The notes beneath the pieces are model-generated. The model worked only from the letters and a program-made list of their open reading frames with translations, did not search any database and was not told where the DNA came from. 64,000 nucleotides of DNA from Candidatus Methanomethylophilaceae archaeon (lineage in GTDB: Archaea > Thermoplasmatota > Thermoplasmata > Methanomassiliicoccales > Methanomethylophilaceae). The position numbers were made by a program, and so were the translations under genes. Position 1 is the stretch's first letter. Each line of letters opens with the position of its first letter. Positions 32,775 to 62,332 of the stretch are shown piece after piece. The stretch covers positions 416,001 to 480,000 of the forward strand of contig CALUHR010000013.1 of NCBI GenBank assembly GCA_944320495.1. The letters run 5' to 3'.

Positions 32775-33038
32775 TCACAGCGAGATGAGGATCCCGACGA
32801 CCGTTATGGCCAGCAGTATGCCGGCGACCATCGCCCAGAACATGTCCCTCTCCTTCAGGAGGCAGGCGAGGCTGACGATAATGCCCGCGAACGGGGAGAG
32901 TATGAGTACGAGGATGCCCGCGTGGAGGAGGCCGTCCCCCATGCCGAGGAGCTCCGCGGCGATGCCGGCGACCATCAGGACCATCCCGATCATCACGACC
33001 GCACGGAGCATGAGCGCGGTGGACTTGTTCAGCTCCAT
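32775..33038 (-). CDS. small 3-TM membrane protein (DUF1634-like partner of TSUP exporter, 87 aa)
   Basis: MELNKSTAL...GILVLILSPF, hydrophobic; its ATG overlaps the CGA of the upstream gene (CGATG). Confidence 0.75.
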   Translation of the reverse strand: MELNKSTALMLRAVVMIGMVLMVAGIAAELLGMGDGLLHAGILVLILSPFAGIIVSLACLLKERDMFWAMVAGILLAITVVGILISL

Positions 33039-33859
33039 CGGAGCACCCCCGCCGCCTGTAGAAGGACGATCGTCGCCATCACGAACACGACGACGGAGAA
33101 GTACTTCCTGAGATGCCTGGCGTTGATCCTGCGCGTCACCACGGTCCCGGCCAGGGACCCTAGGAACGCACCTATCGCGATCCCGGCGGCGAACTCCAGG
33201 AGGACCTGTCCGCCGAGGAAGTAGGTGATCGCTCCGGAGAAGGCGGTGATGCCGATCATGTAGCTGCTGGTGGCGCTGGCCGTCTTCATCGGCACGTGCA
33301 TGTACAGGTTCATCAGTGGGACCTTGACCATCCCGCCGCCGACGCCCGTCATGGAGGATATCATCCCGGCGACGGTGCAGAGTGCCATCCCACCTCTGAC
33401 GTGTTGGAGCTCGTACGAGACGTCCTCCCCGCTCGCCTCGTCCCTGTAAGAGAAGGCGTACCTGCCCCTTGCGTCCTCGGATGGGTGGACTATCGTCTCG
33501 GGGCTCCTGATCATGCGGTATCCGCTGAAGTAGACGATGATGGCGAAGATCACCATGAGGACCCATTCCTCGAGGTACGTCGCGACTATCGCCCCGATTA
33601 TCGCTCCTGTCGCCGTGGTTATCTCGAGAAGGAGGCCCAGGCGCACGTTCGAGAGGCCCTTGTCCACGTAGACCGTGGACGCTCCCACGGATCCGGCTAT
33701 GATGCCTATGAGGCTGATCGCCACCGCCTCCGTCGGCTCCAGACCCATGAGGAGGAGGACGGGCACGAAGATGATGCCTCCACCGAGGCCGAACAGGGCC
33801 CCGAGTATGCCGGCTCCGAGGCCGATGACCATCAGCAGAACCAGCAGCAGCGGATCCAT
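33038..33859 (-). CDS. sulfite exporter TauE/SafE (TSUP) family protein (273 aa, CGA-terminated)
   Basis: GALFGLGGGIIFVP, SSMTGVGGGMVKVP and ASATSSYMIG motifs. Confidence 0.9.
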
Positions 33860-33933
33860 GCAACCCGCATCGGTGATCCGTTTCTATACCTTACGCGGAA
33901 ACGCTCTTAATCGCACATCCCGTGACAACGCTC

Positions 33934-35250
33934 ATGGGCGTCTCCGAGTCGCTTGACAGGTTCTTCGAGATAAGCGGCAGGGGATCCACCATCTCCACGG
34001 AGGTCAAGGGCGGCGTCCTGATCTTCCTCTCGATGGTGTACATCATCGCCGTAAACACGGGCATGATGGTGGCCGCCGGGATGGACGAGTCGGCCTGCTA
34101 CACCGCGACCATCGTGATGGCCATCATCGGAACTCTCCTGATGGCGCTGTATGCCAAGTTCCCGGTGGCGCAGGCCCCGCTCATGGGCGTCAACGCGTTC
34201 TTCGCCTACACGATAGCGGGGACCATGGGGTTCTCCTGGCAGGAGGCCCTCGTGGCGGTCCTGATCTCGGGAGTGATATTCTTCGTGATCGCGATCACCG
34301 GCGTGAGGAAGCGCGTGCTGGACCAGATTCCCGCGAGCCTCAGGTTCGGGATCACCGCCGGCATCGGATGCTTCATCGTCTTCATCGGTCTGCAGAACGC
34401 CGGTCTGATAGCTGATTCCACCACCCTCGTGGGTCTCGGGGACTTCTCCGACCCCGCGGTCATCCTGGCGTTCTTCTGCATCATCCTCACCCTGTTCCTC
34501 TACGCCATGAGGGTCCCGGGGGCGGTGTTCTTCGGGATGATCGTCACGGCGGTGATCGGTGTGGCGATAGGCATCATCCCGTTGCCCGACGAGCTCGTCT
34601 CCATGCCATCCATGCCGCCGGTGGGCGACTTTATGGACGGGATATCTTCCAAACTCCTGAGCGTCGACTTCCTCGTGGCGGTGATCTCGCTGGCATTCGT
34701 CCAGTTCTTCGACAGCACCGGCACCCTGATGGCGACCGGGGAGAGGGCGGGGATCCTGGACGAGAAAGGCAACGTGAAGTGCGATAGGGCCCTCAATGCG
34801 GATTCGGCCACGTCCGTGATCAGCGGGCTCGTCGGAGCCACCCCCACCGGGTCCTTCGCGGAGTCCACTGTGGGCATCGAGGCGGGAGCAAGGACCGGCC
34901 TGGCGGCACTGACGGTCGCGTGCCTGTTCGCCGTCGCCCTGTTCGTGGGGCCGGCGTTCTCCGTGATCGGATACAGTTGCACGGTCGGAGCGATGGTCAT
35001 CGTCGGCGCCGCCATGATAACCCAGCTCAAGGGAGTGACATGGGACGACTGGCCGACCGCCGTGGCGGTCATGGCGACGGTCATCATCATGATCCTCACC
35101 TACTCGATCACCGACGGCATAGTGTTCGGCATACTGTTCTACTGCGTGTGCATGCTCGGGGCCCGCAGGTGGAGGGAGGTCAGCCCGATCATCTACGGTC
35201 TCGCGGTCCTGTTCGTGCTGTACCTGGTGTTCGTCGTGGGGAGGCTGTGA
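33934..35250 (+). CDS. NCS2/AzgA-type purine permease
   Basis: FLSMVYIIAVN, QAPLMGVNAFF, FFDSTGTL and ESTVGIEAGARTGL motifs. Confidence 0.92.
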   Translation: MGVSESLDRFFEISGRGSTISTEVKGGVLIFLSMVYIIAVNTGMMVAAGMDESACYTATIVMAIIGTLLMALYAKFPVAQAPLMGVNAFFAYTIAGTMGFSWQEALVAVLISGVIFFVIAITGVRKRVLDQIPASLRFGITAGIGCFIVFIGLQNAGLIADSTTLVGLGDFSDPAVILAFFCIILTLFLYAMRVPGAVFFGMIVTAVIGVAIGIIPLPDELVSMPSMPPVGDFMDGISSKLLSVDFLVAVISLAFVQFFDSTGTLMATGERAGILDEKGNVKCDRALNADSATSVISGLVGATPTGSFAESTVGIEAGARTGLAALTVACLFAVALFVGPAFSVIGYSCTVGAMVIVGAAMITQLKGVTWDDWPTAVAVMATVIIMILTYSITDGIVFGILFYCVCMLGARRWREVSPIIYGLAVLFVLYLVFVVGRL

Positions 35251-35290
35251 CATCCGTCACTGTTTTATCCGCAGTGCCGATGGTCCGTGC

Positions 35291-36121
35291 GTGTCCGTAA
35301 TACTCGCCAGATACGCGGAGATAGGCCTGAAGAGCGCGCCGGTCAGGCGCCGGTTCGAGAACCAGCTCCGCGAGAACGCCGTCAACATGCTCATGGAGGA
35401 CGGCGTGGAGGCCATCGTCGAGAAGCAGGGAGCCAGGCTCTACGTGGAGGCCGAGGATCCCGAGAGGGCGGTGGCGACCCTGAGGAGGGTGTTCGGCATA
35501 GCCTCCGTCTCCGTCACGGAGACGACCTCGTCCAAGATGGAGGACATCTGCGCACTGGCGGCCTCGTACTCCCTTCCCAGGCTGTCGCAGGGGCAGTCCT
35601 TCGCCGTCCGCGCCCGCAGGGAGGGATCCCAGGGATACACGAGCATGGACGTCGGCCGCGAGGCCGGCTCGGCGATATTCATCGCCAACGAGGACAAGGG
35701 AGTCAGGGTCGACCTCACCGATCCGGACGTGGTCTTCAACGTGGAGGTCAGGGACAACAGGGCCTTCGTGTTCGGCGACGTGGTGAGGTGTCACGGCGGG
35801 TTCCCGGTCGGGAGCCAGGGCAAGGTCCTCGCCAGGATCGATGACGACCGCGGCATCGTGTCCGCCTGGCTCATGATGAAGCGCGGGTGCAGGGTCATAG
35901 CTTCCGGTTCCGCGGACTGGTCCTGCCTCAGGGCGTACGACCCGATGATCCGCGAGGGCACCGAGCACAGGCAGGCCCTGGGCCTGGTCATGGGCACCGC
36001 GCTGGAGGGCCTCGACTCGGTGGACGTGTCGCAGTACGATCTCCCGGTCTATTTCCCGACCATCGGGATGACCGATGCGGAGGTCGCGGAGCTGGCCGAG
36101 ACGATCAGGGCTGGTCTCTGA
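35291..36121 (+). CDS. THUMP-domain ThiI-like protein with degenerate PP-loop domain
   Basis: ILARYAEIGLKS...RRFENQL, SFAVRARR, VDLTDPD and GFPVGSQGKV match ThiI; the SGGxDS loop appears as RIDDDRG. Confidence 0.8.
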   Translation: MSVILARYAEIGLKSAPVRRRFENQLRENAVNMLMEDGVEAIVEKQGARLYVEAEDPERAVATLRRVFGIASVSVTETTSSKMEDICALAASYSLPRLSQGQSFAVRARREGSQGYTSMDVGREAGSAIFIANEDKGVRVDLTDPDVVFNVEVRDNRAFVFGDVVRCHGGFPVGSQGKVLARIDDDRGIVSAWLMMKRGCRVIASGSADWSCLRAYDPMIREGTEHRQALGLVMGTALEGLDSVDVSQYDLPVYFPTIGMTDAEVAELAETIRAGL

Positions 36122-36230
36122 TTCTATTCCCTCACACCTCGAACGACTTCGAGAGGCTGCCGGTCCGCGAATCATGTGCGGGTGAAACGGTACCGGATCC
36201 GATATCGGAATTCTATGGGCTGAAAAGGTC

Positions 36231-36248
36231 CCGCCCCCGAAGGGGCGG
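36231..36248 (-). terminator. hairpin after rpl15e
   Basis: ccgcccc-cgaa-ggggcgg, followed on the minus strand by a short T run. Confidence 0.5.
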
Positions 36249-36271
36249 TAAGAGGTTTCAGGAAGTGAATA

Positions 36272-36901
36272 TCACTTGATCCTTCTCTGGTTGGCCCTGA
36301 CGGAAGGCCTGGCCTTCTCGGCACCCTTTCCGGTGTGCCTCATTCCACGGCCCTTCTGGCCTGCGGAGGTCTTACCGCGGTAGACACGGTTGGTGTGCTC
36401 CTTGTCGCAGATCCAGTTGATCTTGGGGTCGGCCTTGATCACGGGGTGCGCGGGGTCCACGAGGATGACCTCGTACCACTCCTGCTGTCCGTCGGCTCCG
36501 ACCCAGTAGGAGTTCAGAACCTCGAGGTTGGGGTAGCGCTTGGCGGTCCTCTCCTCGGCCATCCTCTGGAGGGACTTGCCGACGGTGATCTGGTTGATTC
36601 CCTTCCTCTTGGCCCTGCGTCCGGTGACGATGGCCCTCTTCTGGAAGGAACCCTTCCTGACCCTGGCCCTGACGACGACGTATCCCTGCTTGGCCTTGTA
36701 GCCGAGAGCCCTTGCCCTGTCGAGCCTGGTGGGGCGCTCGATGCGGAGGAAGTTCTCCTCCTTGCGCCACTGGATCCTGCGCTCGTAGTTCAGGGCCTTG
36801 ACGTAGCTCTTCTCGGGGACGTCCCAGGCCTTTCCGATATAGTAGTACATGCTTTTCCCGTTGACCGGGCGTGTCTCCTGCTGCTGAGTCTCTTCGCTCA
36901 T
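36272..36901 (-). CDS. rpl15e: 50S ribosomal protein L15e
   Basis: [33 protein letters not shown] and [10 protein letters not shown] motifs. Confidence 0.98.
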
Positions 36902-37019
36902 TGGAATCACCTTTACGGATTCACCGATGGACGGCACATCTCCGTTCGCGCGGCTAAGCGCCGCACTACGGTGGCGAGGGTCATCCGCTATAAATAGTCT
37001 GTTTCCCGGGCAGGATGTC

Positions 37020-38576
37020 TCGGTCCGAGTAGCTCCTCCTCATGGATGATGACGGGACTGGGATGCCCAGAGATTCGAAGATGACCTTCTGGTCATACGT
37101 CGGAGGATTGACGCGGTACTCGTCGTTCACTCTGAACGCTTTGATGTCGGAAGCCGCGGAGATGACGTCGAGATAGTTTATGCGACCGGCCAGTTCCGAC
37201 CCTTCCACCATGCCTATGAGGGCCGATTTCATTATGGATGCGAAGAAGTCCCCCATCATCGAAGCCAATGCCGTCTCGTTCGACGGAAACAGGGACGCCC
37301 CGCCCTGAAGGTCCGTCCTGAAGATGGTCCAGTCCTGCTGATAACGGCCTGATTTCCAGATGATCCCAAGCATCTCCTCGATGGAGTACCTGGAGTTTGA
37401 CACTATGACGGTTGCGCCGAGGCACAGTTCCTCCGACAATATGGCTTCCGCGTTACGTTCGACGTCTATGCCTCCGTCCGGGCCTCTGTTCAGCGTGAAG
37501 AACCGCATCAGATCGTCGAATCCGTAGTCTGCGATGATGCGGTCCTCGATCGATGGGCTCCATCTCATGCGCGATACGGTGTCCTCGAACTGTCTTAGAT
37601 TGGAATAGAACTCGACGGTGCGCTCGTCATGCGCTCTCATGTCAACGACCAGGTACACGTCGCAGCGGTTCAGTCCGAACGTCCTCTCCAGACGGAGAAT
37701 CTTGTACAGGGACCTGTCATAAACGACCGAGTCGTATCTCACGATGTCGCGGTTCTCCAGCAGCAGTTCCCTGGCGATGGGGGACGAGGAACCGACATCC
37801 ACGATGGTACTGTAGTCGGTCCCCAGGTAGTGTTCGATCTCGGACTCCGTGTATTCCCTTTCGCTCATGCAGAACGTGACGTCATTCACACCCATCCGGT
37901 CCAGATCCGCCGAGATGGCCTTCATCGTGCTGCGGTCTGCGCCGGAGTAGTTCGCCATGCGGAAGTAGAATGGCAATCCGGATTCGATGCTCAGTCCGAG
38001 GAACAGGCTCTTCGACGGAAAGTGGTCGAAGGATGCATGGCTGCTCGTGCCGAACAGCTTGTAGATGCTGATGGGCTCCTTGAGGACGTCTATGTCGTAC
38101 ACGATGGCAGATTTGCCCTTCGCAAACCTGGCGAAGAATTCGTGACGGTGGCGGTATACGGTGATCAGCAGGTTCATGTATCCGTGGAGGGACATCGGCG
38201 CAGAGTCCAGGGGCATGTCGAAGAACTCCGGCAGTATCGAGGACCTGATGTTCTGCGTGGACTGCGTCGGGGGACAGCAGCGGATCGCCCTACTGACGCA
38301 GTGGGAGAAGAGGTATTTCGAACAGTCCGTGCCGTACACATCGCACAATGCATCCCAGAGGCCGCAGCGTCTGCAGACGTTGAACATGAGATAGTACTCG
38401 CCCATGTCCTTGCTGTCGACGTCCACCGATTTGGACGATACGAGGTTGCCGTCCTTGTCGCATTTGCCGATGTACTTCCTCTTCTGTCTGGAGCGCTTCT
38501 TCTCAGGGTCCCACTCGGCCGTCACCTCATAGAGGTAGTAGTTGTCGCGAACCTTCTGGACCACGTTATAAGACAT
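37020..38576 (-). mobile_element. IS1634-family transposase-like ORF, catalytically degenerate (518 aa, CGA-terminated)
   Basis: N-terminus YYLYEVTAEWDPEKKRSRQKRKYIGK and overall layout resemble archaeal IS1634/IS4 transposases. The third Asp and the catalytic Glu region appear diverged, and no terminal inverted repeats were seen. Confidence 0.6.
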
Positions 38577-38590
38577 GGTAACTATGATTG

Positions 38591-38673
38591 TAATAACTCG
38601 TTATTAACATCACACATCATTCATCAAAGCTAGAATATTTCGATTATGGGCATATGTTGATAACCATGTTATC
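38591..38673. promoter_or_regulatory. two related ATAAC-N2/3-GTTAT palindromes in an AT-rich divergent promoter region
   Basis: taataac-tc-gttatta (38591-38606) and gataac-cat-gttatc (38659-38673). Confidence 0.45.
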
Positions 38674-38737
38674 TCGACGTGGGTCTTTACCTTTGGTTCG
38701 ACATGTTGTCCGTTCAACCTCTTGAGGAGGAGACGAC

Positions 38738-40552
38738 ATGGAACAGGTACTCAACGATGTCAAGGAATGCATCACGAAATACCGCTTCAGGGACATAGTC
38801 CCCAAGGTGAACGCTGCCCTCGATGCCGGATTCACGGCAGGACAGATCCTGGACCAGGGCATGGTCGCAGGAATGAACGAGATCGGAGAGGGCTTCAAGA
38901 ACAACACGATCTTCATGCCCCAGATGCTCATGGCCGCCAAGACCATGCAGGCAGGGCTGGAGGTTCTCAGGCCCAAGCTTGCCGAGTCTGACGACTCCGG
39001 CGTCAAGGGCAGGGCGATCGTCGGATCCGTCATGGGGGACGTTCATGACATCGGGAAGAACCTGGTCACCGTCATGTTGCAGGGTGTCGGAATGGACGTC
39101 ATCGATCTCGGTGCCGATGTCCCCCCGGAGGACTTCGTGTCGAAGCTCGACGAGAACCCCGACACGCGGATCGTCGCGTGCTCCTCGTCCATGACCCCCA
39201 CCCGTCAGGCCCTCAAGGACACCGCTGACAGGCTCAATGCCAGGGCCGACAGATCTGGTTTCGCCATTTTCGTGGGAGGGGCCACCATGGATCAGATGTT
39301 CAGCGACGAGATAAAGGCCGACATCTACACAGTCGATGCGGCAACTGCCGCCGACAGGGCGAAGGCGCTCCTCAGCGGATGTCCCATCGCGAAGCTCTCC
39401 GAGGAATCCAGGAGGGCGGCACTGGATTCGATGAGGGAGGTCGAGAGGGACATCGAGGCGGAGGAGGCGGTTGAGGTCCGCCACCGTCACATGGAGCCCC
39501 CTGCGATCAGGGCCCTCAGGGACTCCGGCAGGTACGACAGGTCCAAGATGTCCATCTGGGAGAACCTCCAGGAGTGGCTCAAGCACGACGAGGGTGTCCC
39601 GGACGCGTTCCTGAACCAGTACTTCTTCGATGTGCTCTTCGATCCCGTCATGATGAACTCGAGGAACCTCAAGGATGAGCTCCTCGAGCCCCTGCCCAGG
39701 TACGTGGACGCATGGGGCGTGACGCACCTCAACCCCGAAGGGTCCGCAGGGTCCCATCCCGAGGAGACTCCCGAGACCATCGTCATCAAGGACATCACAA
39801 AGTGGAGGGAGTATGTCCACGAGCAGCCCGCCACCGAGTTCCCTGATGAGGCCTGGGCGTTGGCGGATCAGCAGGCGGCGGCAGCACGCGAGGCAGGAAG
39901 GCCGATCGCCATCCCGATGTTCCCCGGACTGTTCGAGAGGACCCACTTCCTCCTCGGGATGAACGCGGCGCTCACCGCGTACTACGAGCACCCCGACGAG
40001 ATGCACGAGCTCATCGATTGGATCGCGGACTGGGAGTGCAGGTCCCTGGATGCCACCATGGGACGCTACCACGCCGAGATCCTCTTCCACCACGATGACT
40101 GGGGAACGGCCATCAACTCGTTCCTGGACCCAGACACCCACAGGGAGTTCTTCCTCAAGCCATACAAGAGGATCTTCGACCATTTCAGGGAGCTCGGCGG
40201 AAAGGTCGTGATCCACCACTCCGACAGCTACGCCGCCAATCTGGTGCCGATACAGATCGACATGGGCGCTGACATCTGGCAGGGTCCGGTCAGTGCCAAC
40301 AACATCCCGGAGCTGATCGACAAGTACGGAGACCGCTTCATCTTCATGGGCGGGATCGACAACGCCATCATCGATGCCCCCGGATTCACCGATGAGGGCG
40401 TCGAGGAGTTCGTCAGGCAGAGGATCGAGCAGAACGGATGTCACAGCTACATCCCCTGCCTCACCAGGGGCCTGGGGATCTCCATCGTCCCCGGCGTGTA
40501 CGACTCGGTCTCCAAGGCGATAGACAAGATCTCCGCCGAGAAGTTCGATTGA
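38738..40552 (+). CDS. corrinoid-binding protein fused to URO-D/MtaA-like methyltransferase domain (604 aa)
   Basis: N-terminal cap plus GDVHDIGKNLV...SSM...VGG B12-binding motif; C-terminal DAWGVT, GLFERTH, HHDDWG, HHSD and FMGGID TIM-barrel MT2-like motifs. Confidence 0.88.
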   Translation: MEQVLNDVKECITKYRFRDIVPKVNAALDAGFTAGQILDQGMVAGMNEIGEGFKNNTIFMPQMLMAAKTMQAGLEVLRPKLAESDDSGVKGRAIVGSVMGDVHDIGKNLVTVMLQGVGMDVIDLGADVPPEDFVSKLDENPDTRIVACSSSMTPTRQALKDTADRLNARADRSGFAIFVGGATMDQMFSDEIKADIYTVDAATAADRAKALLSGCPIAKLSEESRRAALDSMREVERDIEAEEAVEVRHRHMEPPAIRALRDSGRYDRSKMSIWENLQEWLKHDEGVPDAFLNQYFFDVLFDPVMMNSRNLKDELLEPLPRYVDAWGVTHLNPEGSAGSHPEETPETIVIKDITKWREYVHEQPATEFPDEAWALADQQAAAAREAGRPIAIPMFPGLFERTHFLLGMNAALTAYYEHPDEMHELIDWIADWECRSLDATMGRYHAEILFHHDDWGTAINSFLDPDTHREFFLKPYKRIFDHFRELGGKVVIHHSDSYAANLVPIQIDMGADIWQGPVSANNIPELIDKYGDRFIFMGGIDNAIIDAPGFTDEGVEEFVRQRIEQNGCHSYIPCLTRGLGISIVPGVYDSVSKAIDKISAEKFD

Positions 40553-40553
40553 G

Positions 40554-41717: not shown

Positions 41718-41721
41718 GCGG

Positions 41722-51531: not shown

Positions 51532-52401
51532 ATGGATGGGAACACAAGGATGGAGGATCTGGAGCAGCATCTGCTGTTCCACAGGGCGCTCGCCGACGAC
51601 GACGAGTCGCTCAGGAGGATAGGGGGATACATGGACATCCTCTCCCGGGCGGAGTCCGGGGAGAGGCTCCAGGACCCCGTGGACGAGTCGATCAGGGCCG
51701 TCTTCAGCCTGGTGCTGGAGAAGGGCATCGACCCCTGGGAGGTGGACCTCTCGGAGTTCGCCCGCATGTACGAGGCCAAGGTCTCCAGGGACAGCTTCGA
51801 CATGATCGTCGCGGGCAAGCTGCTGCTCATGGCATGGAGAATCCTGCGCATGCAGTCGGAGTCCACTAGGGCCAGGAGCGAGCCGCCGGTCGAGCCCGTC
51901 ATCGAGGAGGCCGACGACAGCTTCTTCTTCGAGGACGAGCCGCTGTACGTGCCCGAGGTCAGCTTCAGGGAGGCCTTCAGGAGGCAGACCGAGAGGCCCG
52001 TCACCGTGTACGAGCTCATCGACGCCTTCGAGGACGCCCGCAGGGACATCGATATCCAGCGCGAGCGCGAGCGCGTCCGCCGCGAGCTCAAGGCCAAGGA
52101 GCCCAAGAGGTTCGACAACAAGGCCCACGACGAGGACGACGAGCGCGACGTCGAGGCCGTGTGGAAGCGGATCGAGAGGCTCGGCACCGGGCAGATCGCC
52201 ATCCGCGACCTCTACACAGCCGACCTCCAGGAGAACCTCACCACCTTCGTGGCGGTGCTCCACCTGGTCAGGGACGGCAGGCTGGCCGTCTGGCAGGACG
52301 AGCTGCCCTACGGCACCATCTATCTGGAGATCAAGACGGACTGGTCCTCAGGGACCCTCGAGGACTCGCCCGGCCAGCTGGTGACCGAGGCGGTGAACCG
52401 A
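51532..52401 (+). CDS. scpA: segregation/condensation protein A, kleisin (289 aa, CGA-terminated)
   Basis: IDPWEVDL and C-terminal TFVAVLHLVRDGRLAVWQ motifs. The CGA at 52399-52401 lies 1 nt before the scpB TTG. Confidence 0.9.
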
Positions 52402-52402: not shown

Positions 52403-52927
52403 TTGGACGCCAAGGGAGCGGCCGAGGCCGCGCTGTTCGCCAGTCCGGAGAACCTGAGGATCTCCGACATAGCGGAGCGCACGGGGTTCCCGGAGGAGGA
52501 GATCCGCACCGCGCTGATGGACCTCCGCAGGGAGTACGAGGAGCGCGATTCAGCCATAGTCATAGCCAAGATAGGCTCCGAGTACGGCATGATGCTCCGC
52601 GCGGAGTACTCCGACTTCCCCGGCATGTTCGGGAAGGCGGAGATGTCCGGAGGGCTGATGAGGACCCTCAGCACCATCGCATACAACCAGCCCGTGCTGC
52701 AGTCGGAGCTCGTGAGGACCAGGGGTCCCCGCGGGTACGACGACGTCCACAGGCTGATTGAGATGGGATTCGTCTCGGGGAAGAAGAGCGGGCAGACGCT
52801 GGAGCTGACGACGACCAAGAAGTTCTCGGACTACTTTGGCATCGGCTCCACCCGCAAGGCGGACATCCGCAAGTGGATCGAGTCCCAGGCGTCCAACTCC
52901 CGCATGCCCGAAGACGGCCAGGAATGA
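52403..52927 (+). CDS. scpB: segregation/condensation protein B
   Basis: AEAALFAS, TLSTIAYNQPV, TRG and TTKKFSDYFG motifs. Confidence 0.92.
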   Translation: MDAKGAAEAALFASPENLRISDIAERTGFPEEEIRTALMDLRREYEERDSAIVIAKIGSEYGMMLRAEYSDFPGMFGKAEMSGGLMRTLSTIAYNQPVLQSELVRTRGPRGYDDVHRLIEMGFVSGKKSGQTLELTTTKKFSDYFGIGSTRKADIRKWIESQASNSRMPEDGQE

Positions 52928-53011: not shown

Positions 53012-53092
53012 AGGACAATTCCATATCGCTATCTATCCCGTCTGGACTACATATCCCTAAAGAAAATCCTTATATGGGTTCACGAGGGTGAG

Positions 53093-53176
53093 ATGAGCAT
53101 CATGACGGTGCCCTCTGCCGACGTAGATGCCGCTCCGAGTGCCAGTGCAGTCCATCGGGACCTGGAGGACTGCCGA
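53093..53176 (+). CDS. putative 24-27 aa leader ORF coupled to the ABC permease via CGATG
   Basis: ATG 53093 (or 53102) downstream of a CCTTATAT box reads MSIMTVPSADVDAAPSASAVHRDLEDC, then a CGA whose A is the first base of the permease ATG. Confidence 0.45.
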
Positions 53177-54822
53177 TGTCCCTCCTGAAGAAGATAGATG
53201 AGATATCCGGCAGCTACAAGGCGAGGAACGCCTGGCTGACGTTCGCCATAGTTCTCTTCATAGCGATCATCGTCATCCCCGCGATATTCGTAGTCACCAA
53301 GCTCTTCACGGAGTGGGACCTGGTCAGCGGGGTCCTGAACGATCCCGCGAGCATGGAGGTAATCGAGGGCGCGGTGTGGAACTCGTTCAGCATAGCGGCC
53401 ATAGTCACGGTCATCGACATCCTCGTGGGACTGCCGATGGCGTGGATCATGGTCCGCAGGGATTTCAAGGGCAAGAAATGGCTCGACACCCTGCTGGACA
53501 TGCCCCTGGCGTTCCCGACCGCCGTCCTCGGAATCTCGGTGGTCATGTTCTGGGGCGCCCCCGAGGGCATCACGATCCCGGGGCTGGGGCTGGACCTGTC
53601 ACCGTACGTGATGCTCCTGTTCCTCCACATCATATTCACCTATCCGTACATGGTCCGCTCCCTGTCCGGAATCCTGGAGCAGATCGACGTCAACTACGAG
53701 ACCGCGGCCATGACCCTCGGCGCTTCGAAATGGACCGCCGTGAGGACCATCACGATCCCCCTGTTCCGCGCCGGTCTCGCCACCGGGTTCATCCTGTGCT
53801 TCGCCAGGTCCCTGTCGGAGACCGGGGGCACATACATCGCCCTGACCATGATGGGCGTCGAGAGCACCTTCTTCACCGGGCCGTCGTTCATCAGCTGGCT
53901 GAAGTCCGACCCGACCATGGTCGACTCCGGGGACTACATGGGCGCCATGATCCTGATCAGCGTAGTCATGATCGTCCTGGCCCTGATCCTCCTCGTGGTG
54001 GTGAAGTGGATCATCGCGAGGTTCAGGATCCCCTGGAAGAAGGTCTGGCCGGAGATCGGCAGGAGCGTCAGCCGCGGCCCCCTCCCGAAGGTCAAGGACG
54101 TCATCACAGTCGTGTTCCTGATTATCGTGGTCCTGCTGCCCTCTTTCTACATATTCGCGTATCTGACGGAGCCGATCCCCGACATAGACTACGGGACGCT
54201 CCTGTCGTCCACCGGGGTGTCGTTCCTGGTTGCGGGCGTGGCCGTCCTCGTCGACCTCATCCTGGGCATCCCGCTGTCGCTCTACATCGCCAGGCACAAG
54301 GGCGGGAAGCTCGCCGGCATCCTGGACGGGCTGGTCAACGTCCCCCTGATCATCCCGACCACCGCGCTTGGATTCTCCCTGGCGCTGTTCTGGGCCAGCT
54401 TCGGTGCTGGGGACTCGATGGCCATCGTGCTGGTCATCCTCGGTCACATCTCGTTCACGTATCCGCTCGTGGTGAGGAACCTGGTGGGCGCGATAGAGGA
54501 GGTCAACCCGGAGTGCGAGGAGATCGCCATGACCCTCGGCGCCAAGCCCTTCCGCGCGTTCAGGACAATCCTCATGCCGATCATCAAGTCGTCCGTCGTC
54601 GCCGGATGCATCCTGGCGTTCACCAGGTCCCTGGGCGAGACGGGCGCGACCATCGCCATCAGCGACAGCGTCAGCACGGTCCCGATCTACATCACCAACC
54701 TGGTCCAGGACCACATGTACACCGAGGCGGCGATGTGCTCCATCGTCCTGATCGCCATCTGCTTCGTGCTGATGATGGTCGTCAGGATGCTAACACACAG
54801 GAGGCAGGGTAGGGATGCCTGA
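53176..54822 (+). CDS. ABC transporter permease, two fused TMDs (Fe3+/molybdate/sulfate-like class)
   Basis: Two EAA-like loops (ETAAMTLGAS, EEIAMTLGAK) and FARSLSETG / FTRSLGETGA motifs. Confidence 0.9.
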   Translation: MSLLKKIDEISGSYKARNAWLTFAIVLFIAIIVIPAIFVVTKLFTEWDLVSGVLNDPASMEVIEGAVWNSFSIAAIVTVIDILVGLPMAWIMVRRDFKGKKWLDTLLDMPLAFPTAVLGISVVMFWGAPEGITIPGLGLDLSPYVMLLFLHIIFTYPYMVRSLSGILEQIDVNYETAAMTLGASKWTAVRTITIPLFRAGLATGFILCFARSLSETGGTYIALTMMGVESTFFTGPSFISWLKSDPTMVDSGDYMGAMILISVVMIVLALILLVVVKWIIARFRIPWKKVWPEIGRSVSRGPLPKVKDVITVVFLIIVVLLPSFYIFAYLTEPIPDIDYGTLLSSTGVSFLVAGVAVLVDLILGIPLSLYIARHKGGKLAGILDGLVNVPLIIPTTALGFSLALFWASFGAGDSMAIVLVILGHISFTYPLVVRNLVGAIEEVNPECEEIAMTLGAKPFRAFRTILMPIIKSSVVAGCILAFTRSLGETGATIAISDSVSTVPIYITNLVQDHMYTEAAMCSIVLIAICFVLMMVVRMLTHRRQGRDA

Positions 54823-55915
54823 GATTGTTCTGGACGACCTCTGCAAGGACTTCGACGGCCATGTCGCAGCCGACCATCTGAGCCTGACCATAGGCGATGG
54901 GGAGTACGTCTGCATCCTGGGTCCCACCGGGGCCGGGAAGACCACCGCCATGAGGATGATCTGCGGTCTCACGATCCCCGATTCCGGGAGGGTGCTCCTG
55001 GACGGGAGGGACGTGACCATGGATTCGCCGGACTCCAGGAACGCCACCATGCTCACGCAGACCTACGCGCTATTCCCGCACATGACGGTCTACAACAACG
55101 TCATGTTCGCCCCCAAGACCAAGGGGTGGCCGGAGGGCGAGTCGAAGCAGATCGTCAGGAGCATGCTGCACCTGGTGCATCTCGACCAGAAGGCGGACTG
55201 GGTCCCCGGGGAGCTATCCGGCGGCCAGCAGCAGCGCATTGCCCTCGCCCGCGCCCTCGCATCCGGGTCGAAGATCCTCCTGCTGGACGAGCCGCTCAGG
55301 GCGCTGGACGCGCGCCTGAGGATCGACCTGAGGAAGGAGCTCAGGTCCCTGGCCAAGGAGATGGGGCTCACGTGCATCCACGTCACCCACGACCAGGATG
55401 AGGCCCTGGAGATGGCCGACCGCATCGCCGTCATCCGCAAGGGCAGGATCATACAGTTCGGGACCCCCCGCGAGGTCTTCGAGAACCCGGCCACGCCGTT
55501 CGTGGCCAACTTCGTGGGCAGGTCCAACATATTCTCCGGCAAGGTCGTCGGAGCCGGCGACGGCAGGGTGTCCGTGGACGTCGGCGGGATCGTCCTGACC
55601 GGGAGGGGGGACGGGATGGAGCCCGGCTCCGAGGCGGTTCTCGCCGTCAAGGTCGGGTTCACCAGGCTCTCGGCGCCCGGGGAGGGGCCGGAAGGTTCCG
55701 TGAAGGGCATAGTGGAGCGCATCGTGTACGAGGGGGCCACCGTGACCGTGGAGGTCTCCGCCGGGTCGTTGGGCCTGGTTTCGTCCAAGCTGCCGAGCGC
55801 GAGGTTCGAGGAGTTCAGCGTCGGAGCCGCGGTCGATGTATCGTGGCCGGCCGACAAGGCGACGGTGTTCCAGATGCCCGCCGGCGGGCTCGAAGAGGAG
55901 ATGAGGTTGGACCGA
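54815..55915 (+). CDS. ABC transporter ATP-binding protein 1 (366 aa, CGA-terminated)
   Basis: GPTGAGKT, LSGGQQQR, LLLDEP and HVTHD motifs plus a TOBE domain; ends EEEMRLD-CGA, overlapping the next ATG. Confidence 0.92.
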
Positions 55916-57000
55916 TGGCAAGGATCAAGTTGGACAGGATCTCCATGCGCTTCGGCGATTTCTACGCCGTCAGGGACATATCGCTCGAGATCGGGAACGG
56001 CGAGTACGTGACCATCCTCGGACCGTCCGGTTGCGGCAAGACCACGCTCATCAAGGTCATATCGGGGATCTGGACCCCGACCGAGGGGAAGGTCTACGTG
56101 GATGGCAGGGACGTCACGAACATCCCCATGGAGGACAGGGACGTCGGATACGTGTTCCAGAACATCGCACTGTTCCCGCACATGAACCTGAGGGACAACG
56201 TCGAGTACAGTCCCAGGGTGAAGGACCAGGGCGACGAGAGGATGGCCGAGCTGTCAGAGGAGTACCTCAAGCTCGTGGGCATGTTCCAGAGGGCCGGGAT
56301 GCTCCCGTCGGAGCTCTCCGGAGGGGAGCAGCAGAAGGTCGCCATCGCCCGCGCGCTGGCATCCGGTTCCAAGATGCTGATGCTCGACGAGCCGCTGTCC
56401 GCTCTGGACGCTCGCGTCCGCGTCGAGCTGAGGTACGAGCTCCGCAGGATCGTCAAGAAGCTCGGGATAACCGTTCTCCACGTCACGCACGACCAGGAGG
56501 AGGCCATGTCGGTCTCCGACCGCATCGTGCTCATGCGCTACGGCGCCATCGCCGAGTCCGGTGCGCCCCTGGACATATACCGCCGTCCGAAGTCCGTCTT
56601 CGCGGCCAACTTCATCGGGGAGACCAACCTCTTCGAGTGCACCGTCTCCGATTGGTCCAAGAGCGGGAAGACCAGGGTCACCATGCGCGGTGGCCGCGAG
56701 ATCCGCGTGTCCCGCACGGACTTCCGTCCCGGGGACGCCGTCGTAGTGTCCGTGAGGCCGGAGCATGTGCGTCCGGACGAGGACGGGATCGAGGCGAAGG
56801 TGCGCTCCGTGTCCTTCAGAGGGGTCTACTGGAGGGTGAGGACCATGGCCGAGAGCAGTGACTATATTGAGTACGACGTACCTGCAGACGGTGAGGTCCC
56901 CGAGGTGGGAGACACCGTGCGCCTGTCCTTCGACAGGAACGCATCCGTCGTGTTCCCCAGACCCGAGGGCGGAATAGAGGAGGAGATCAGACTTGAGTAA
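55915..57000 (+). CDS. ABC transporter ATP-binding protein 2 (361 aa)
   Basis: GPSGCGKT, LSGGEQQK and MLDEP motifs; ends EEEIRLE-TAA. Confidence 0.93.
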   Translation: MARIKLDRISMRFGDFYAVRDISLEIGNGEYVTILGPSGCGKTTLIKVISGIWTPTEGKVYVDGRDVTNIPMEDRDVGYVFQNIALFPHMNLRDNVEYSPRVKDQGDERMAELSEEYLKLVGMFQRAGMLPSELSGGEQQKVAIARALASGSKMLMLDEPLSALDARVRVELRYELRRIVKKLGITVLHVTHDQEEAMSVSDRIVLMRYGAIAESGAPLDIYRRPKSVFAANFIGETNLFECTVSDWSKSGKTRVTMRGGREIRVSRTDFRPGDAVVVSVRPEHVRPDEDGIEAKVRSVSFRGVYWRVRTMAESSDYIEYDVPADGEVPEVGDTVRLSFDRNASVVFPRPEGGIEEEIRLE

Positions 57001-57673
57001 GGATCAATCCGGCCTGCTTGGATGGTTCGGGAAGAGGAAGGAGGGCGTCGTCGGAGACGGTCTCCGCGCCATGTCCCTCTCCGTCCGCGACTGCGTAACC
57101 GAACTTGGCCTGGCACTGCGCGCCATGGGCGAGGAGGACTCCTCCGCCGCCAAGAAGGCCATCGAGAGGCTGTTCAAGTGCGAGCACGAGGCCGACGCCC
57201 AGGAGGACGAGCTCTGCAACCAGATAAGCATAGGCGAGCTCGGCGCCCAGGAGCGCGAGGACCTCATGCACTTCATCCGCAAGACGGACAAGATCGCCAA
57301 CTGGAGCAAGGAGGCCGCCATCGGCGTCTCCCTGGTCGACGAGCTGGGCATGAAGGTGCCCAAGGGCATCTGGGACATGCTCGCGCAGTCCGTGTCCGAC
57401 CTGGAGTCGGAGGTCCGCGGCCTCGCCAATTCGATAGAGATGATGGGGTCCGAGGGATCCGACATCATGGAGTGCGTCCGCGGCATCAGGGAGATGGAGA
57501 GGACGCTCGACCGCGCCTACTACGAGATGACGAAGACCATCTTCCGCGCGGACATCGATCCCAAGGCGGTCATCATGCTGCTGAGGATAGTGGACGCCAT
57601 CGAGATGGCGGCGGACACCTGCAAGGCCTGCTCCGACACCGTCGCGATCCTCCACTACGCCAAGAGGGTGTGA
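56993..57673 (+). CDS. DUF47/PhoU-like helical bundle protein
   Basis: Repeated EHEADAQ / EREDL...D-K-I-A and ERTLD...D-A-I-E-M-A-A-D motifs. Confidence 0.85.
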   Translation: MSKDQSGLLGWFGKRKEGVVGDGLRAMSLSVRDCVTELGLALRAMGEEDSSAAKKAIERLFKCEHEADAQEDELCNQISIGELGAQEREDLMHFIRKTDKIANWSKEAAIGVSLVDELGMKVPKGIWDMLAQSVSDLESEVRGLANSIEMMGSEGSDIMECVRGIREMERTLDRAYYEMTKTIFRADIDPKAVIMLLRIVDAIEMAADTCKACSDTVAILHYAKRV

Positions 57674-59058
57674 GCCTGACCCTCTTCGGGCCCGGCGGCG
57701 TCAGGGCCGTCGTCAACAGCGACCTGACGCCGGAGGTGGCGCTGGATCTGGGACGCGCCGTGGGGAGGACCCTCGGCGGCACGGTGGCCCTCGCCACCGA
57801 CGCAAGGGACTCCGCCCGCATGGTCAGGTCGGCCATGGTCGCCGGCATGATGGCCGTCGGGGCGGACGTCGTGGATCTCGGCATGATCCCCACGCCGGCG
57901 CTGCAGTTCTACGTCCGCGAGCATCCGGGGATATCCGGAGGCGTCATGGTGACGGCCTCCCACAACCCTCCCGAGTATAACGGTATGAAGCTGATACTCG
58001 GTGACGGCACGGAGGCCACCACCGAGGACGAGGCCGAGCTGGGCACATCCTACGCAATGGAGGCCCGCGATGCCGATTGGGACAGGGTCGGGCGCATCCG
58101 CACCGAGGAGGGCGCGATATCCGATTACATAGACGCGATAGTCTCCAAGGTCGATGCTGAGGCCATCCGTTCCGCCGGTCTGACCGTTTGCGTCGATTGC
58201 GCGTGCGGTGCGGCCAGCTTCTCGACGCCGCTGCTCCTCAAGAGGCTCGGCGTCTCCACGGTGACGATAGGCTGCGACCCCGTGGCGTCCCCTCACAGGG
58301 ACAGCGACCCGACGGAGGAGAACCTCACGACCCTCATGGGTCTGGTAAGGTCCTCCGGCGCCGACATGGGCATCGCCCACGACGGTGACGGGGGCCGCGC
58401 AGTGTTCATCGACGGGACTGGGAGGTTCCTCAACGGATCAGTCTCCGGGGCCATAGTCGCAAGGAGCATCCTGGCCGAGGGCAAGGGCAAGGTCGTGACC
58501 CCGATAAGCTCGTCAAAGGTCCTGGAGGACGTGGTGACCGAGGCAGGAGGGCTGGTGAAGTACACCGAGGTCCTCTCGCACCAGGTCGTCCGTAAGATGC
58601 AGGAGAACCTCGCGGTGTTCGGGGTCGAGGAGCACGGGGGCATGGTGTTCCCCCAGATGCAGATGTGCAGGGACGGCGCCATGGCGCTCGCCAAGATGCT
58701 GGAGATCATCGCCAAGAACGGTCCGCTGGCCGACATGGTGTCGCAGCTCCCGTCGTACAGCACGAGGAAGGTCAAGGTCCCCTGTCCGGAGGGGCTCAAG
58801 GTGCCCGTGATGGACAGGCTTCACAGGGATGTGGAGGCCGCGGGGTCCCGCATGGACGTGACCGACGGCATCAAGATAATCCTGAACGACGGATGGGCGC
58901 TGATCCGCGCCTCTACGACGGAGCCCTGCATCAGGGTGTACTCGGAATCGATGGACGCCGGTACCGCCGACAGGATACTGTCGGAGTACTCCAGGATGGT
59001 CAAGGACCTGGTTCGCGGGCTCACAGATGCTTCGCGTGCACAGCCAGAGCCTCGTTGA
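57670..59058 (+). CDS. phosphomannomutase/phosphoglucosamine mutase (462 aa)
   Basis: GTVALATDAR, VTASHNPPEYNG, HDGDGGR and LIRASTTEP motifs; GTGA overlap with the upstream gene. Confidence 0.92.
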   Translation: MSLTLFGPGGVRAVVNSDLTPEVALDLGRAVGRTLGGTVALATDARDSARMVRSAMVAGMMAVGADVVDLGMIPTPALQFYVREHPGISGGVMVTASHNPPEYNGMKLILGDGTEATTEDEAELGTSYAMEARDADWDRVGRIRTEEGAISDYIDAIVSKVDAEAIRSAGLTVCVDCACGAASFSTPLLLKRLGVSTVTIGCDPVASPHRDSDPTEENLTTLMGLVRSSGADMGIAHDGDGGRAVFIDGTGRFLNGSVSGAIVARSILAEGKGKVVTPISSSKVLEDVVTEAGGLVKYTEVLSHQVVRKMQENLAVFGVEEHGGMVFPQMQMCRDGAMALAKMLEIIAKNGPLADMVSQLPSYSTRKVKVPCPEGLKVPVMDRLHRDVEAAGSRMDVTDGIKIILNDGWALIRASTTEPCIRVYSESMDAGTADRILSEYSRMVKDLVRGLTDASRAQPEPR

Positions 59059-59878
59059 TGAGCCTGGCCGCCAGGATCGAGGTTATGCCGGAGGGGTCGG
59101 CCGGAGGGCAGACCTCGTTGACGTCGAATCCCACGAGCCTCTCGCCGATGATGTTGATGACCTTCTTCACATCCATCGGCATGAGGCCGAACGGTTCGGG
59201 TGTGCCGGTCCCGGGTGCGAACGCGGGGTCGATCCCGTCTATGTCCACGGTGAGGTAGACCTTCTCGGCCTTGACCTCGTCGAGGGCCTTGCCGATGGCC
59301 TTCTCGATCCCCATGTCCATGATGTCGTAGGAACTGATGAACGGGACGACGTCGTCCCTGTCGAGCTCCTCCTCGCCGATGGCTCTGGCTCCGAGGACGT
59401 AGACGTTGTCCAGTCCCAGGTGCTCCGCGGCGCGCCTCATGACGCAGGCGTGGCTGTTCGGGGTCCCGAGGTACTCGCCCCTCGAATCGAGGTGGGCGTC
59501 TATCGAGATGAGCGCGATGCTTTTCTCGGGGAAGGCGCGGACGATCGGGATGTTGATGGAGTGCTCCCCTCCGATGGCCACCGTGAACTTCCCGTCGTTG
59601 ATGGCGGGACGGACGGCGAAGTCCACCTCGGCGAACATGTCCTCGGGAAGGATGAAGTCGTCGCAGTTCCCGTAGTCGTACACCTCGAGACGTCTCTGGT
59701 GGATCCCGTGCTCGAAGTGTATCTCCTCAAAATTGTAGGAGGCCCGCCGGATGGCGGTCGGGGCCTCCCTGGCACCCGCCTTGAAACAGGCGGTGTGGTC
59801 GTACGGGATGCCGAATATCACGGCCTCCGCGTCGTTGTATTCTGATTCGGCGCCGGCGTAGGCAAGCCCGTACGACAT
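59021..59878 (-). CDS. speB: agmatinase
   Basis: GGEHSI, IDAHLD and TVDIDGIDPAFAPGTGTPEP ureohydrolase motifs; adjacent to aIF5A. Confidence 0.93.
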   Translation of the reverse strand: MSYGLAYAGAESEYNDAEAVIFGIPYDHTACFKAGAREAPTAIRRASYNFEEIHFEHGIHQRRLEVYDYGNCDDFILPEDMFAEVDFAVRPAINDGKFTVAIGGEHSINIPIVRAFPEKSIALISIDAHLDSRGEYLGTPNSHACVMRRAAEHLGLDNVYVLGARAIGEEELDRDDVVPFISSYDIMDMGIEKAIGKALDEVKAEKVYLTVDIDGIDPAFAPGTGTPEPFGLMPMDVKKVINIIGERLVGFDVNEVCPPADPSGITSILAARLINEALAVHAKHL

Positions 59879-59888
59879 TGGTTTCACC

Positions 59889-60266
59889 TCACATTATCTT
59901 GTATCTGCCCATGGCCTCGAGGTAGAGGATCTCTCCGCCCTCGGCGAGGGGCTGCTCGTGGTCGGCGTTGATGGGGATAGAGATCTGCTCGAAGGTCTCC
60001 ATGTCCATGATGAGGGCCTCCTCATCGCTGAGGGTCAGGATCTGTCCCTTCCTCTTGTCGATGACGGGCACCTGGACCTTGGTGCTCACGGGTCCGACGA
60101 TGGACTTCTTAGCGCCGGTGAAGATGCTGACCGCGTCAACGTTGGCTTTGGCGGATCCGTGCTTTCCGGGCTTGGAGGTCGTGATCTTGATGATCTTGCA
60201 GGGCTCGTCGTCGACGTTGACGTACCTGCCCTCTTTCAGCTCCCTGATCTCTTTCATCTCCCACAT
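59889..60266 (-). CDS. eif5a: translation factor aIF5A
   Basis: TSKPGKHGSAK hypusination motif. Confidence 0.97.
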   Translation of the reverse strand: MWEMKEIRELKEGRYVNVDDEPCKIIKITTSKPGKHGSAKANVDAVSIFTGAKKSIVGPVSTKVQVPVIDKRKGQILTLSDEEALIMDMETFEQISIPINADHEQPLAEGGEILYLEAMGRYKIM

Positions 60267-60629
60267 TTGGACTCACTCTCTCATATTGATGAATGGCTCC
60301 GCGCCCATCAAGGCCGGAGGTTCACCCCCGTGAAGGAGGCGTCGATACGCATGTTCTTTGCAATCATGCTATCTGGACCACCCCTACGGGAGTATCTGGA
60401 TATTAAGATTACTGGGAAAACGGAATCTGGCACTCGTCTGGTGCCGGCATGTGTGGATCAGGTCCGGCGGATAGTTCGTCAGCGTCCCGCAGGGGTCTCC
60501 GGTCGGCGACGGCGGTGAGCACCACCGATGTGATCAGGTACGTGATTAGACCGGCGCCCGGGGATGTCCGCGCGGAGCCTTCCGGCTCCGTACGCGGTCA
60601 CGAGCCCGGGGTCGCGGTGGCGAAGCCGA

Positions 60630-61730
60630 TCGCCGCCTGCGCGGTCCGCCCTTGCCCTTGCCGCCCCTGTTCCTGGGCTTCCCCGACTTCTGCTTCTGGG
60701 GCTTCTTCGGCGGGTCGGGGTACCTCCTGCGGATGTCCTCCACCCTGGCCCTGAACTCCTCGTTCAGGCGGTCCCCGGCGAACTCGCCGTGGTACTCGTC
60801 GATCTTCGCCGCGATCAGGACCTTGCCGGCCAGCGCCCTGGCGACCTTCCCGCGCTGCCAATAGGGCGAGCGGTGGACCTCCGGGTGCTGGTAGATTATG
60901 CCGTGCTTGGGCCCCCTCTTGCCGGAGCGCATGCTCCTGAACATGGCCTTCTCGGCCCCGAGGAGCTGCACGGTGGAAGACGGGAGGGAGGCGAGCCTCT
61001 CCAGCCCTCCGGCGAGGGACACCAGCCTCGCGGCCAGCGGTCCTCCGAGCATGGCGCACATGTTGGGGCACGACTCCTCGACGATCCCCTGGATGTAGGC
61101 CTGGGTCCTGAGCTCGTCGTCGTAGAGGCGGTCGAGGGTGTCCGCCAGGTCCATGACCGCGCGGAGGTCCTCGTCATCCATGTCGGACCCGATGGACTCG
61201 ATGTCTATGCCGAGCTCCCCCATCACGGAGTCCCTGTCGCCGTATCTGGCGACGAGCTCGGCGTACCTCCTGTCGTGGGCGTAGTCCGCGAGCTCCGGGA
61301 AGTGCATCCCGTACCACTCGTGCAGCCTCTCGTTGTACAGGTTGATCGTCGCGATCTGGTCGTCCAGGCATCTGATGGCCTGGGCCATGCTGCGGTCCCT
61401 GGCTATGGGCTCGGAGGTCCTGAGCCTGCCGAGTCCCAGCATGACCTCGTGCATGAACGCGTCGTCGTATCCGTAGTCGGCGGCATGGATGAACGAGGAG
61501 TCGAACATCATGGGCTTCCCGAGCTCGGACTGCCTGCGCTCGGATACGGAGGGCTTCTCGATTCCGGCGACGAGCTCGCGCTCCTCGTCGAGCACGCCCC
61601 CGCGCTGCATCTCCGCCAGCTTCTGCGCCGCGGCCTCGGCGTCCTTGGGCATCAGCCTCTTGTCGAGGATCCTCCCGGACTTCTCGTCCACGAGGAAGCA
61701 CCCGAACCATTTCGTCACGAGCACCGCCAT
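60630..61730 (-). CDS. nop5: C/D box sRNP protein Nop5/Nop56 (366 aa, CGA-terminated)
   Basis: NERLHEWYGMHFPEL, LASLPSSTVQLLGAEKAMF and KHGIIYQHP motifs; the basic tail ends GKGKGGPRRR-CGA. Confidence 0.92.
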
Positions 61731-62332
61731 CGCATCACCCCCAGCTTCGCGAGCTCGGAGTCCGGGAGGTCCTCAGCATCGCCGCAGAGCAGCTGCAGGC
61801 GGGCCTGGAACTCCAGCTCCTCCATCCTGTCGAAGGCCTCCTCCAGGGTGGTCCCCTGCGTGAGGGCGCCGTGGCGGACCATGAGCATGGCCTTCGCGTC
61901 GGCGTGCTCGGCCACGGCGTCCACGAGCTCCTGGGTGCCCGGGGTCACGTACGGGACCTCCGCGACCCTCCCCAGGAGGAGCGCCCCTTCTGGGGTGAGG
62001 TTGCATCTGAGCCTCTCGCCCCGGACGGTGATCGCGATGCAGTTGAGCGGGTGGCAGTGGACCACCGCGTTCGTTCCGGGGTTGGCGCGGTACAGTGCCA
62101 GATGGAAGCCCGTCTCGATCGACGGCCTCCCTCCTGACACGACGGTGCCGTCCATGGAGACCTTCACCAGGTCCTCGGGGGACAGCAGGCTCTTGTTCCT
62201 GCCGGACGGCGTGATCAGGATGCCGTCGTCGATCCTGACGCTCATGTTCCCGCCGGCCGACACGGTGAGGTCCCTGTCGTACAGCATCCTGCAGGTCGCG
62301 ACCAGCGCCCCGCGAGCCTCCGCCTCGTCCAT
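61730..62332 (-). CDS. class II aldolase/adducin family protein (200 aa, CGA-terminated)
   Basis: GGNMSVR, ITPSG, PSIETGFH, VVHCHP and MVRHG motifs; the CGA overlaps the nop5 ATG (CGATG). Confidence 0.9.

Follow-up and report, generated by a model that had tools for sequence, protein, structure and literature searches.

CGATG stop/start overlaps suggest that CGA ends genes in a genus of Methanomethylophilaceae archaea

Codons that have changed from sense to stop are known from organelle genetic codes (NCBI tables 2, 22 and 23), in which AGA/AGG in vertebrate mitochondria, UCA in Scenedesmus and UUA in Thraustochytrium serve as terminators. In archaea, adjacent genes that overlap as TGATG (a gap of −1) or ATGA (a gap of −4) are coupled in translation by termination–reinitiation (Huber et al. 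2019, PMC6728339; PMC10666635). Yeast eRF1/eRF3 can release at CGA, and UGA-biased eRF1 variants do so best (Wada and Ito 2018, PMC7379694). Moreover, for two archaeal assemblies from hydrothermal vents, in which CGG encodes Trp, a preprint (KACI, 10.64898/2026.04.02.715157) raised the possibility that CGA is a stop, and left the question open. Here we analyse CGATG pentamers at gene junctions in a 64,000-nucleotide (nt) stretch of Candidatus Methanomethylophilaceae archaeon DNA (assembly GCA_944320495.1, contig CALUHR010000013.1, positions 416,001 to 480,000), hereafter referred to as the window (G000:C13:416001-480000). From comparisons of genes and genomes, we consider it highly probable that CGA is the stop of the upstream gene at three of these junctions and that, in this genus, an in-frame CGA marks the end of coding, most likely as read by the release factor aRF1.

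The genome containing the window (G000) comprises 1.77 Mb in 14 contigs with 62% G+C, and encodes McrA and Nop5; it is therefore that of a methanogenic archaeon. Genes and their starts were called with our own dicodon gene caller, the family identities of junction partners were assigned by Pfam profile matches, and co-directional neighbours were compared with those in genus genomes and outgroups (labelled G0xx; G018 is a 96%-identical relative). Stops of the standard code are referred to as table-11 stops, and the gene call in which CGA was added as a fourth stop (CGA=*) as the four-stop call.

The preliminary description of the window had reported CGATG at four operon junctions. All four pentamers were located in the frames described there (Table 1), and at each of them the A of an upstream in-frame CGA is also the A of the downstream ATG. 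Two co-directional, adjacent protein genes with Pfam-supported partners and tiling open reading frames (ORFs) flank the pentamer from TSUP to DUF1634 (junction 1), from ABC ATPase 1 to ATPase 2 (junction 3) and from the class II aldolase gene to nop5 (junction 4); at the start of the ABC permease gene (junction 2) the upstream 'leader' ORF is unsupported, and so is the description as an operon junction. Under table 11, no upstream frame stops at the CGA, and a TGA follows 2 (TSUP), 3 (leader ORF), 31 (ATPase 1) and 4 (aldolase) codons later. With CGA=*, the ORFs of junctions 1, 3 and 4 tile edge to edge, and their upstream proteins, cut at the CGA, match the family profile to its end or to at most three positions short of it; in ATPase 1, the TOBE_2 profile is matched through its last position, at residue 352. 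Each presumed upstream stop ends on the base with which the downstream start codon begins, and the downstream starts are conserved in relatives. As far as sequence can tell, three of the four CGATG sites are true one-base stop/start overlaps, the CGA equivalent of the classic TGATG.

The orthologous junctions, whose comparison the preliminary description had proposed, carry TGATG, ATGA or a TGA followed by a spacer where G000 has CGATG. At junction 1, CGATG is found in G018, TGATG in G002, G014 and G006, and ATGA or GTGA in seven other genomes, and the TSUP orthologues end at the same position with the TGA of these TGATG, ATGA or GTGA sequences. Junction 3 is CGATG in G018 and G009, TGATG in G013 and the outgroup G029, and TGA-C-ATG in four genus genomes. 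The ATPase 1 orthologues across the order end in ...EEEMRLD or ...EL(K/R)VE, followed by TGA or TAG at the same place; the same residue is the last of ATPase 1 in five outgroup genomes of other families, before a TGA or TAG that in one case belongs to a TGATG, and the 31-codon tail that ATPase 1 has under table 11 was found in no orthologue. Junction 4 is TGATG in G018, G009 and G013, CGATG in G001 and G010, and ATGA in G003, and has a TGA upstream of the ATG in five others. Six additional junction families elsewhere in the genome behave alike, and two of them are CGATG in five or six species. Taken over all nine junction families, the 40 orthologous states have C before GATG in 30 cases and T in 10, and never A or G. 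The same exchange is seen at the CGA stop of nop5, which aligns with TGA in G009 and G013, and at the end of scpA, which is CGA in G018, G009 and G004 and TGA in G006 and G002; altogether, at eleven orthologous gene ends, CGA occupies the position of a standard stop in relatives. A 19-kb region with four CGATG junctions (G000:C5:134000-153000) has almost no conserved DNA counterpart in five genus relatives; it added one comparison and may be a variable or mobile region.

The distribution of CGA over the whole genome points in the same direction. Beyond 160 codons from the table-11 stop, in-frame CGA occurs at 0.2 per 1000 codons, and in the last 5 codons at 14.7 per 1000; AGA, CGT and CGG occur at 1.7–3.6 per 1000 codons in gene bodies. 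In 306 table-11 genes, the dicodon score per codon is about +0.57 before the first CGA and −0.4 to −0.86 after it, and the third-position G+C content drops from 0.87 to 0.56 past the first CGA, in tails of up to 400 codons; control codons produced no comparable drop in coding signal. The four-stop call contains 1694 genes versus 1538, with more coverage and a higher total score, and its genes end in TGA (1206), CGA (416), TAA (54) or TAG (18), with CGA ending about a quarter of the genes in the genome and 16 of the 60 in the window. An early count over stop-to-stop ORFs had given 4.0 CGA per 1000 codons, as in normal use, and was discarded as an artefact: 1778 of the CGAs counted precede the real starts, where the frame runs out of register through neighbouring genes. 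Inside genes, CGA in the other two frames shows no avoidance (8,640 NCG|A and 33,978 NNC|GA, at 0.91 and 0.96 of expectation, respectively); the effect is therefore frame-dependent and acts at decoding. In sense positions inside genes, CGA is thus nearly absent, the known exceptions being Arg78 of aRF1, one flavodoxin gene and one SIS-HAD ORF. As a separate observation, the rarity of TAG among the called stops, despite the G+C-rich genome, fits a pyrrolysine-using lineage.

Two control genomes were treated in the same way. In 400 kb of G008, a single-contig genus member with 54% G+C, CGA occurs at 0.0 per 1000 codons inside genes. In 400 kb of the outgroup G024, from the same order and with 41.5% G+C, CGA is an evenly spread sense codon (1.2–1.7 per 1000), and adding it as a fourth stop reduces the score. 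The pipeline therefore does not manufacture the CGA pattern.

The junctions themselves were counted genome-wide, with the CGATG-versus-NGATG comparison that the preliminary description had named. Among co-directional neighbours with table-11 overlaps of at least 7 nt in the relevant frame and an ATG start (n=55), the upstream codon that supplies the A of the ATG is CGA in 26, GGA in 7 and AGA in 1, alongside 33 TGATG junctions; inside genes, AGA is 18 times and GGA 100 times commoner than CGA, which makes up well under 1% of NNA codons. Thus CGATG exceeds the other NGATG contexts, and at gene starts CGA outnumbers AGA, another Arg codon placed in the same way, by 26 to 1. In the four-stop call, one-base overlaps comprise 48 CGATG and 34 TGATG (up to 57 and 51, respectively, when alternative starts are allowed). 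Gaps after CGA-ended genes cluster sharply at one value, −1 (48 cases), every other value occurring 10 times or fewer, and a Shine–Dalgarno (SD)-like motif lies 4–18 nt upstream in 44 of the 48 CGATG junctions versus half of all genes. Counted from the junction, the next standard stop is a median of 5 codons away for CGATG and 5.5 for TGATG (Mann–Whitney p=0.58); the read-on frame is therefore unconstrained, and the supposed tails are not kept short. Four-base overlaps of the ATGA type (ATGA, GTGA, TTGA) number 221, and every one of them has kept TGA. Two other origins of the CGATG excess were rejected from the ATGA junctions: CG as a favoured initiation context before ATG, as CGA occupies the position in only 14 of 181, and derivation of CGATGG from CGATGA by A-to-G change, as the NNA spectrum there is mostly AGA, GAA and GCA.

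The base that follows CGA also distinguishes its terminal use. T stands at +4 after 48–54% of CGA stops, compared with 23% of CGA trinucleotides overall and 28% of TGA stops. At NGATG, CGA makes up 58.5% of the stops, and where T follows a stop in other settings its share is 39.8% (p=0.002); CGA is over-represented at NGATG partly because CGA stops prefer T at +4. The preliminary description had held the overlap geometry to be expected only if CGA terminates translation: the enrichment of CGATG bears this out, although 'only if' overstates the case, because the CGATG at the leader ORF is most likely due to chance. Its further proposal, that the signal is under selection and is not random decay of TGA, agrees with the −1 peak, the SD-like motifs, the conservation of CGATG in five to six species and the lack of A or G in the orthologues.

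These observations could be explained as follows. aRF1 would recognize CGA as a signal for release, most efficiently where U follows (CGA-U), such that TGA and CGA would be interchangeable stops and a T<->C change at the first base nearly neutral. High G+C pressure would then push many TGATG junctions to CGATG, whereas ATGA junctions would stay fixed, because their T is part of the start codon. A ribosome ending at CGA would sit directly on the AUG, 5–10 nt past the SD-like motif, and coupling of downstream translation to the upstream gene by termination–reinitiation could occur there; for CGATG we infer this by analogy with the known overlaps, the −1 peak and the SD-like motifs being indirect signs of it, and release by aRF1 is likewise proposed. 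On balance we favour the fuller proposal that CGA is a fourth stop read by aRF1 across the genus, most strongly as CGA-U, with CGATG equivalent to TGATG, that an attenuated tRNA-Arg(UCG) is kept for a feedback CGA in the aRF1 gene, and that this is the first sense-to-stop reassignment in a cellular genome, although we hold it with clearly less confidence than the role of CGA at the three junctions.

The case made here is wholly in silico, and several observations weigh against this reading. CGATG is not genus-wide: the 400 kb of G008 contain 0 CGATG and 13 TGATG junctions, and 16 of its 372 genes end in CGA; abundant CGA stops, and hence CGATG, are a feature of the G+C-rich members. Of the 48 CGATG junctions in G000, 13 are CGATGA and can equally be read as ATGA overlaps in table 11, the fourth reported junction in the window is without a credible upstream gene, and the SD-like motifs make independent initiation possible in place of reinitiation. 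The gene for tRNA-Arg(UCG) is located 2.6 kb ahead of the window start (G000:C13:413317-413390, +) and is kept in every genus genome inspected. The aRF1 gene itself (G000:C2:85933-87165, −) has an in-frame CGA at the conserved Arg78 in eRF1 domain 1, and a flavodoxin gene (G000:C8:55331-55840, +) has one at codon 119, within its Flavodoxin_4 domain. CGA is therefore not an absolute stop and is decodable, and some read-through may take place at the junctions.

The presence of the tRNA gene at first looked like evidence that refutes a stop function of CGA; on closer inspection, its anticodon arm is non-canonical across the genus. The arm has a 31:39 mismatch (A.A, U.C or C.A) in 13 genomes, in which the other four stem pairs covary, and C33 instead of U33 in three genomes (G008, G007 and G015). 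The one copy seen in the outgroup G024 is canonical, with a normal 5-bp stem and U33.

The CGA in aRF1 is itself conserved. In 16 of 17 genus genomes the gene has exactly one CGA, at Arg78, amid synonymous variation around the codon, and the conserved CGA is followed by C; outgroup genes have CGC, CGT, CGG, AGA or AGG at this position and CGA elsewhere. This pattern suggests a read-through site at which aRF1 would compete with the weak tRNA, providing feedback on aRF1 synthesis. The aRF1 proteins of the genus differ from those of outgroups in other respects as well. Past the NIKS motif, the genus has NIKSKTTMKNV and the outgroups NIKS(K/Q/A)(S/G/R)T(R/Q)K(N/A)V, such that the genus has Met at the third residue past NIKS+1, where most outgroups have Arg and two have Gln, and the GT(S/E) loop reads GRST instead of GRGT in G000 and G018. 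The change next to NIKS, the conserved CGA in the gene and the U preferred at +4 are hints that aRF1 may recognize CGA.

The few in-frame CGAs beyond which coding continues lie mostly between neighbouring genes in the same frame, as in the pelota/HMGL gene and NifH-like/NifD-like pairs. The three non-neighbour cases are aRF1, the flavodoxin gene and the SIS-HAD ORF (G000:C13:193618-194700, −), in which the CGA lies between the SIS and HAD domains, directly before an AVFIDRDG motif and with no start codon nearby; the flavodoxin and SIS-HAD cases could be read-through, pseudogenes or fusions.

The tRNA data are shared with the alternative that survives best, though we regard it as improbable: CGA may be unassigned or very slowly decoded, with stalled ribosomes freed by a rescue system (Pelota-type or other), which would produce the same CGATG geometry. 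The non-canonical anticodon arm occurs in both subclades, and AGA/AGG of vertebrate mitochondria provide a precedent, as a terminator derived from sense codons without a cognate tRNA. However, the preference for U at +4 of CGA stops resembles a release-factor signal context, the conserved CGA in the aRF1 gene is understandable as feedback only if aRF1 is a competitor at this codon, and a stall at a quarter of gene ends would be costly; moreover, release by eRF1 at CGA is on record in yeast (PMC7379694).

It is less probable still that CGA is an ordinary arginine codon and that the junctions are TGATG sites decayed by T-to-C change, with junk-tailed upstream proteins and genes overlapping by 10–97 nt. 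A TGA does follow soon after the CGA in every upstream frame under table 11, junction 4 is TGATG in the closest relative, G018, the genome has a gene for tRNA(UCG), and the aRF1 CGA lies at a conserved Arg. However, this explanation needs some 300–400 genes with untranslated-looking tails of up to 400 codons and CGA otherwise absent from gene bodies, and it meets no selection for short tails relative to read-through past true TGA stops. Decay should also have yielded GGATG and AGATG, which account for 0 of the 40 orthologous states, whereas CGATG is conserved in five to six species at two junctions and the outgroup control is clean. The weakest alternative, C-to-U editing of messenger RNA that would turn CGA into UGA, a standard stop for the ribosome, fits the T/C interchange in DNA at exactly the editable base but is very improbable. 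Frame-blind editing, rejected by the off-frame CGA counts, would alter thousands of residues (8,640 NCG|A sites lie inside genes), frame-aware editing has no known mechanism, and editing would destroy the aRF1 CGA at its conserved Arg.

Junction 2 requires a different account from the other three. The 27-codon leader ORF before the permease gene matches no Pfam family, its SD-like GGGTGA lies only 1–2 nt from its ATG, too close to be well spaced, and it is conserved in G018 only; in G009 and G013 the permease starts without an overlapping upstream ORF. As CG precedes the ATG in 112 of 1085 starts (~10%) with a non-coding upstream frame, we rejected the leader ORF as a gene, and the CGATG here is most likely a chance site. 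An A/T-rich stretch with TTATAT at window positions 53056-53075 (+), about 20–30 nt ahead of this ORF and some 100 nt from the ATG of the permease gene, looks like an archaeal B recognition element (BRE)/TATA promoter of the ABC transporter operon.

Treating CGA as a stop also uncovers hidden genes in the window. The gene scpB starts one base after the CGA of scpA and is concealed under table 11 by a false scpA tail of 120 codons. Two further genes, at 30319..30693 (+) and 21965..22285 (−), are likewise visible only with CGA=*.

Table 1 Genes and CGATG sites discussed here, in window coordinates
Feature	Position	Strand	Remarks
DUF1634-like membrane protein gene	32775..33038	−	87 aa, TGA stop; Pfam DUF1634, 28.1 bits versus cut-off of 27.5
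CGATG junction 1, TSUP to DUF1634	33036..33040	−	CGA, read as stop, shares its A with the ATG
TauE/SafE (TSUP) permease gene	33038..33859	−	273 aa, CGA end at 33040..33038; Pfam TauE profile positions 1–234 of 237
Probable scpA gene	51550..52401	+	CGA end at 52399..52401
scpB gene (SMC_ScpB)	52403..52927	+	174 aa, TTG start
'Leader' ORF	53093..53176	+	27 codons, CGA end; unsupported as a gene
CGATG at permease start (junction 2)	53174..53178	+	Probably a chance CG before ATG; GGAGG at −14..−10
ABC permease gene	53176..54822	+	548 aa, TGA stop; two BPD_transp_1 stretches (Pfam)
ABC ATPase 1 gene (ABC_tran + TOBE_2)	54815..55915	+	366 aa, CGA end at 55913..55915
CGATG junction 3, ATPase 1 to ATPase 2	55913..55917	+	CGA, read as stop, shares its A with the ATG
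ABC ATPase 2 gene (ABC_tran + TOBE_2)	55915..57000	+	361 aa, TAA stop
nop5 gene (Nop domain)	60630..61730	−	366 aa, own CGA end at 60632..60630
CGATG junction 4, aldolase to nop5	61728..61732	−	CGA, read as stop, shares its A with the ATG
Class II aldolase gene	61730..62332	−	200 aa, CGA end at 61732..61730; Pfam Aldolase_II positions 3–183 of 183

If CGA is a stop in this genus, the standard code misannotates about a quarter of its proteins, with false tails of up to hundreds of residues, false long overlaps and hidden genes such as scpB. The CGATG junctions provide a different kind of evidence for this from codon counts: the base shared by stop and start is kept while the stop itself switches between TGA and CGA, a pattern that is difficult to account for if the ribosome does not treat both codons alike. 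They also offer a simple experimental handle on termination and coupling together. More generally, a sense codon could then become a terminator in a cellular genome, along a route hinted at here, in which latent activity of aRF1/eRF1 on CGA, a weakened tRNA and G+C pressure that spreads the new stop would combine. We found no description of CGA stops in this lineage in the literature.

As in the organelle codes, a former sense codon ends genes in this genus and is absent from conserved sense positions. The setting differs: here the genome is a free-living, cellular one of 1.77 Mb, the codon is CGA, the gene for a tRNA with the cognate anticodon is kept, and CGA stands once for Arg, in aRF1. 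The bacterial prfB gene, in which an in-frame UGA serves the autoregulation of RF2, resembles the aRF1 gene described here in that a release-factor gene holds an in-frame copy of a codon read by its own product; where prfB uses a +1 frameshift, the aRF1 codon would be read through as Arg. In yeast, release by eRF1 at CGA is a weak side reaction at rare-codon repeats, whereas here CGA ends some 25% of genes. The vent archaea of the KACI preprint share with this genus the absence of CGA from recognizable domains and the suspicion of a stop; however, they belong to another lineage, no tRNA(UCG) was found in them and their CGG is reassigned, and the preprint offers no evidence from gene ends or junctions. 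The closest likeness is to the TGATG and ATGA systems of archaea, with which the CGATG junctions share co-directional genes, a stop whose last base is the first of the ATG, an SD-like motif inside the upstream gene and the −1 peak, and the orthologous junctions in relatives are literally TGATG or ATGA. In contrast to those systems, the stop here is CGA, a standard Arg codon, ATGA has no CGA counterpart, and coupling is proposed by analogy.

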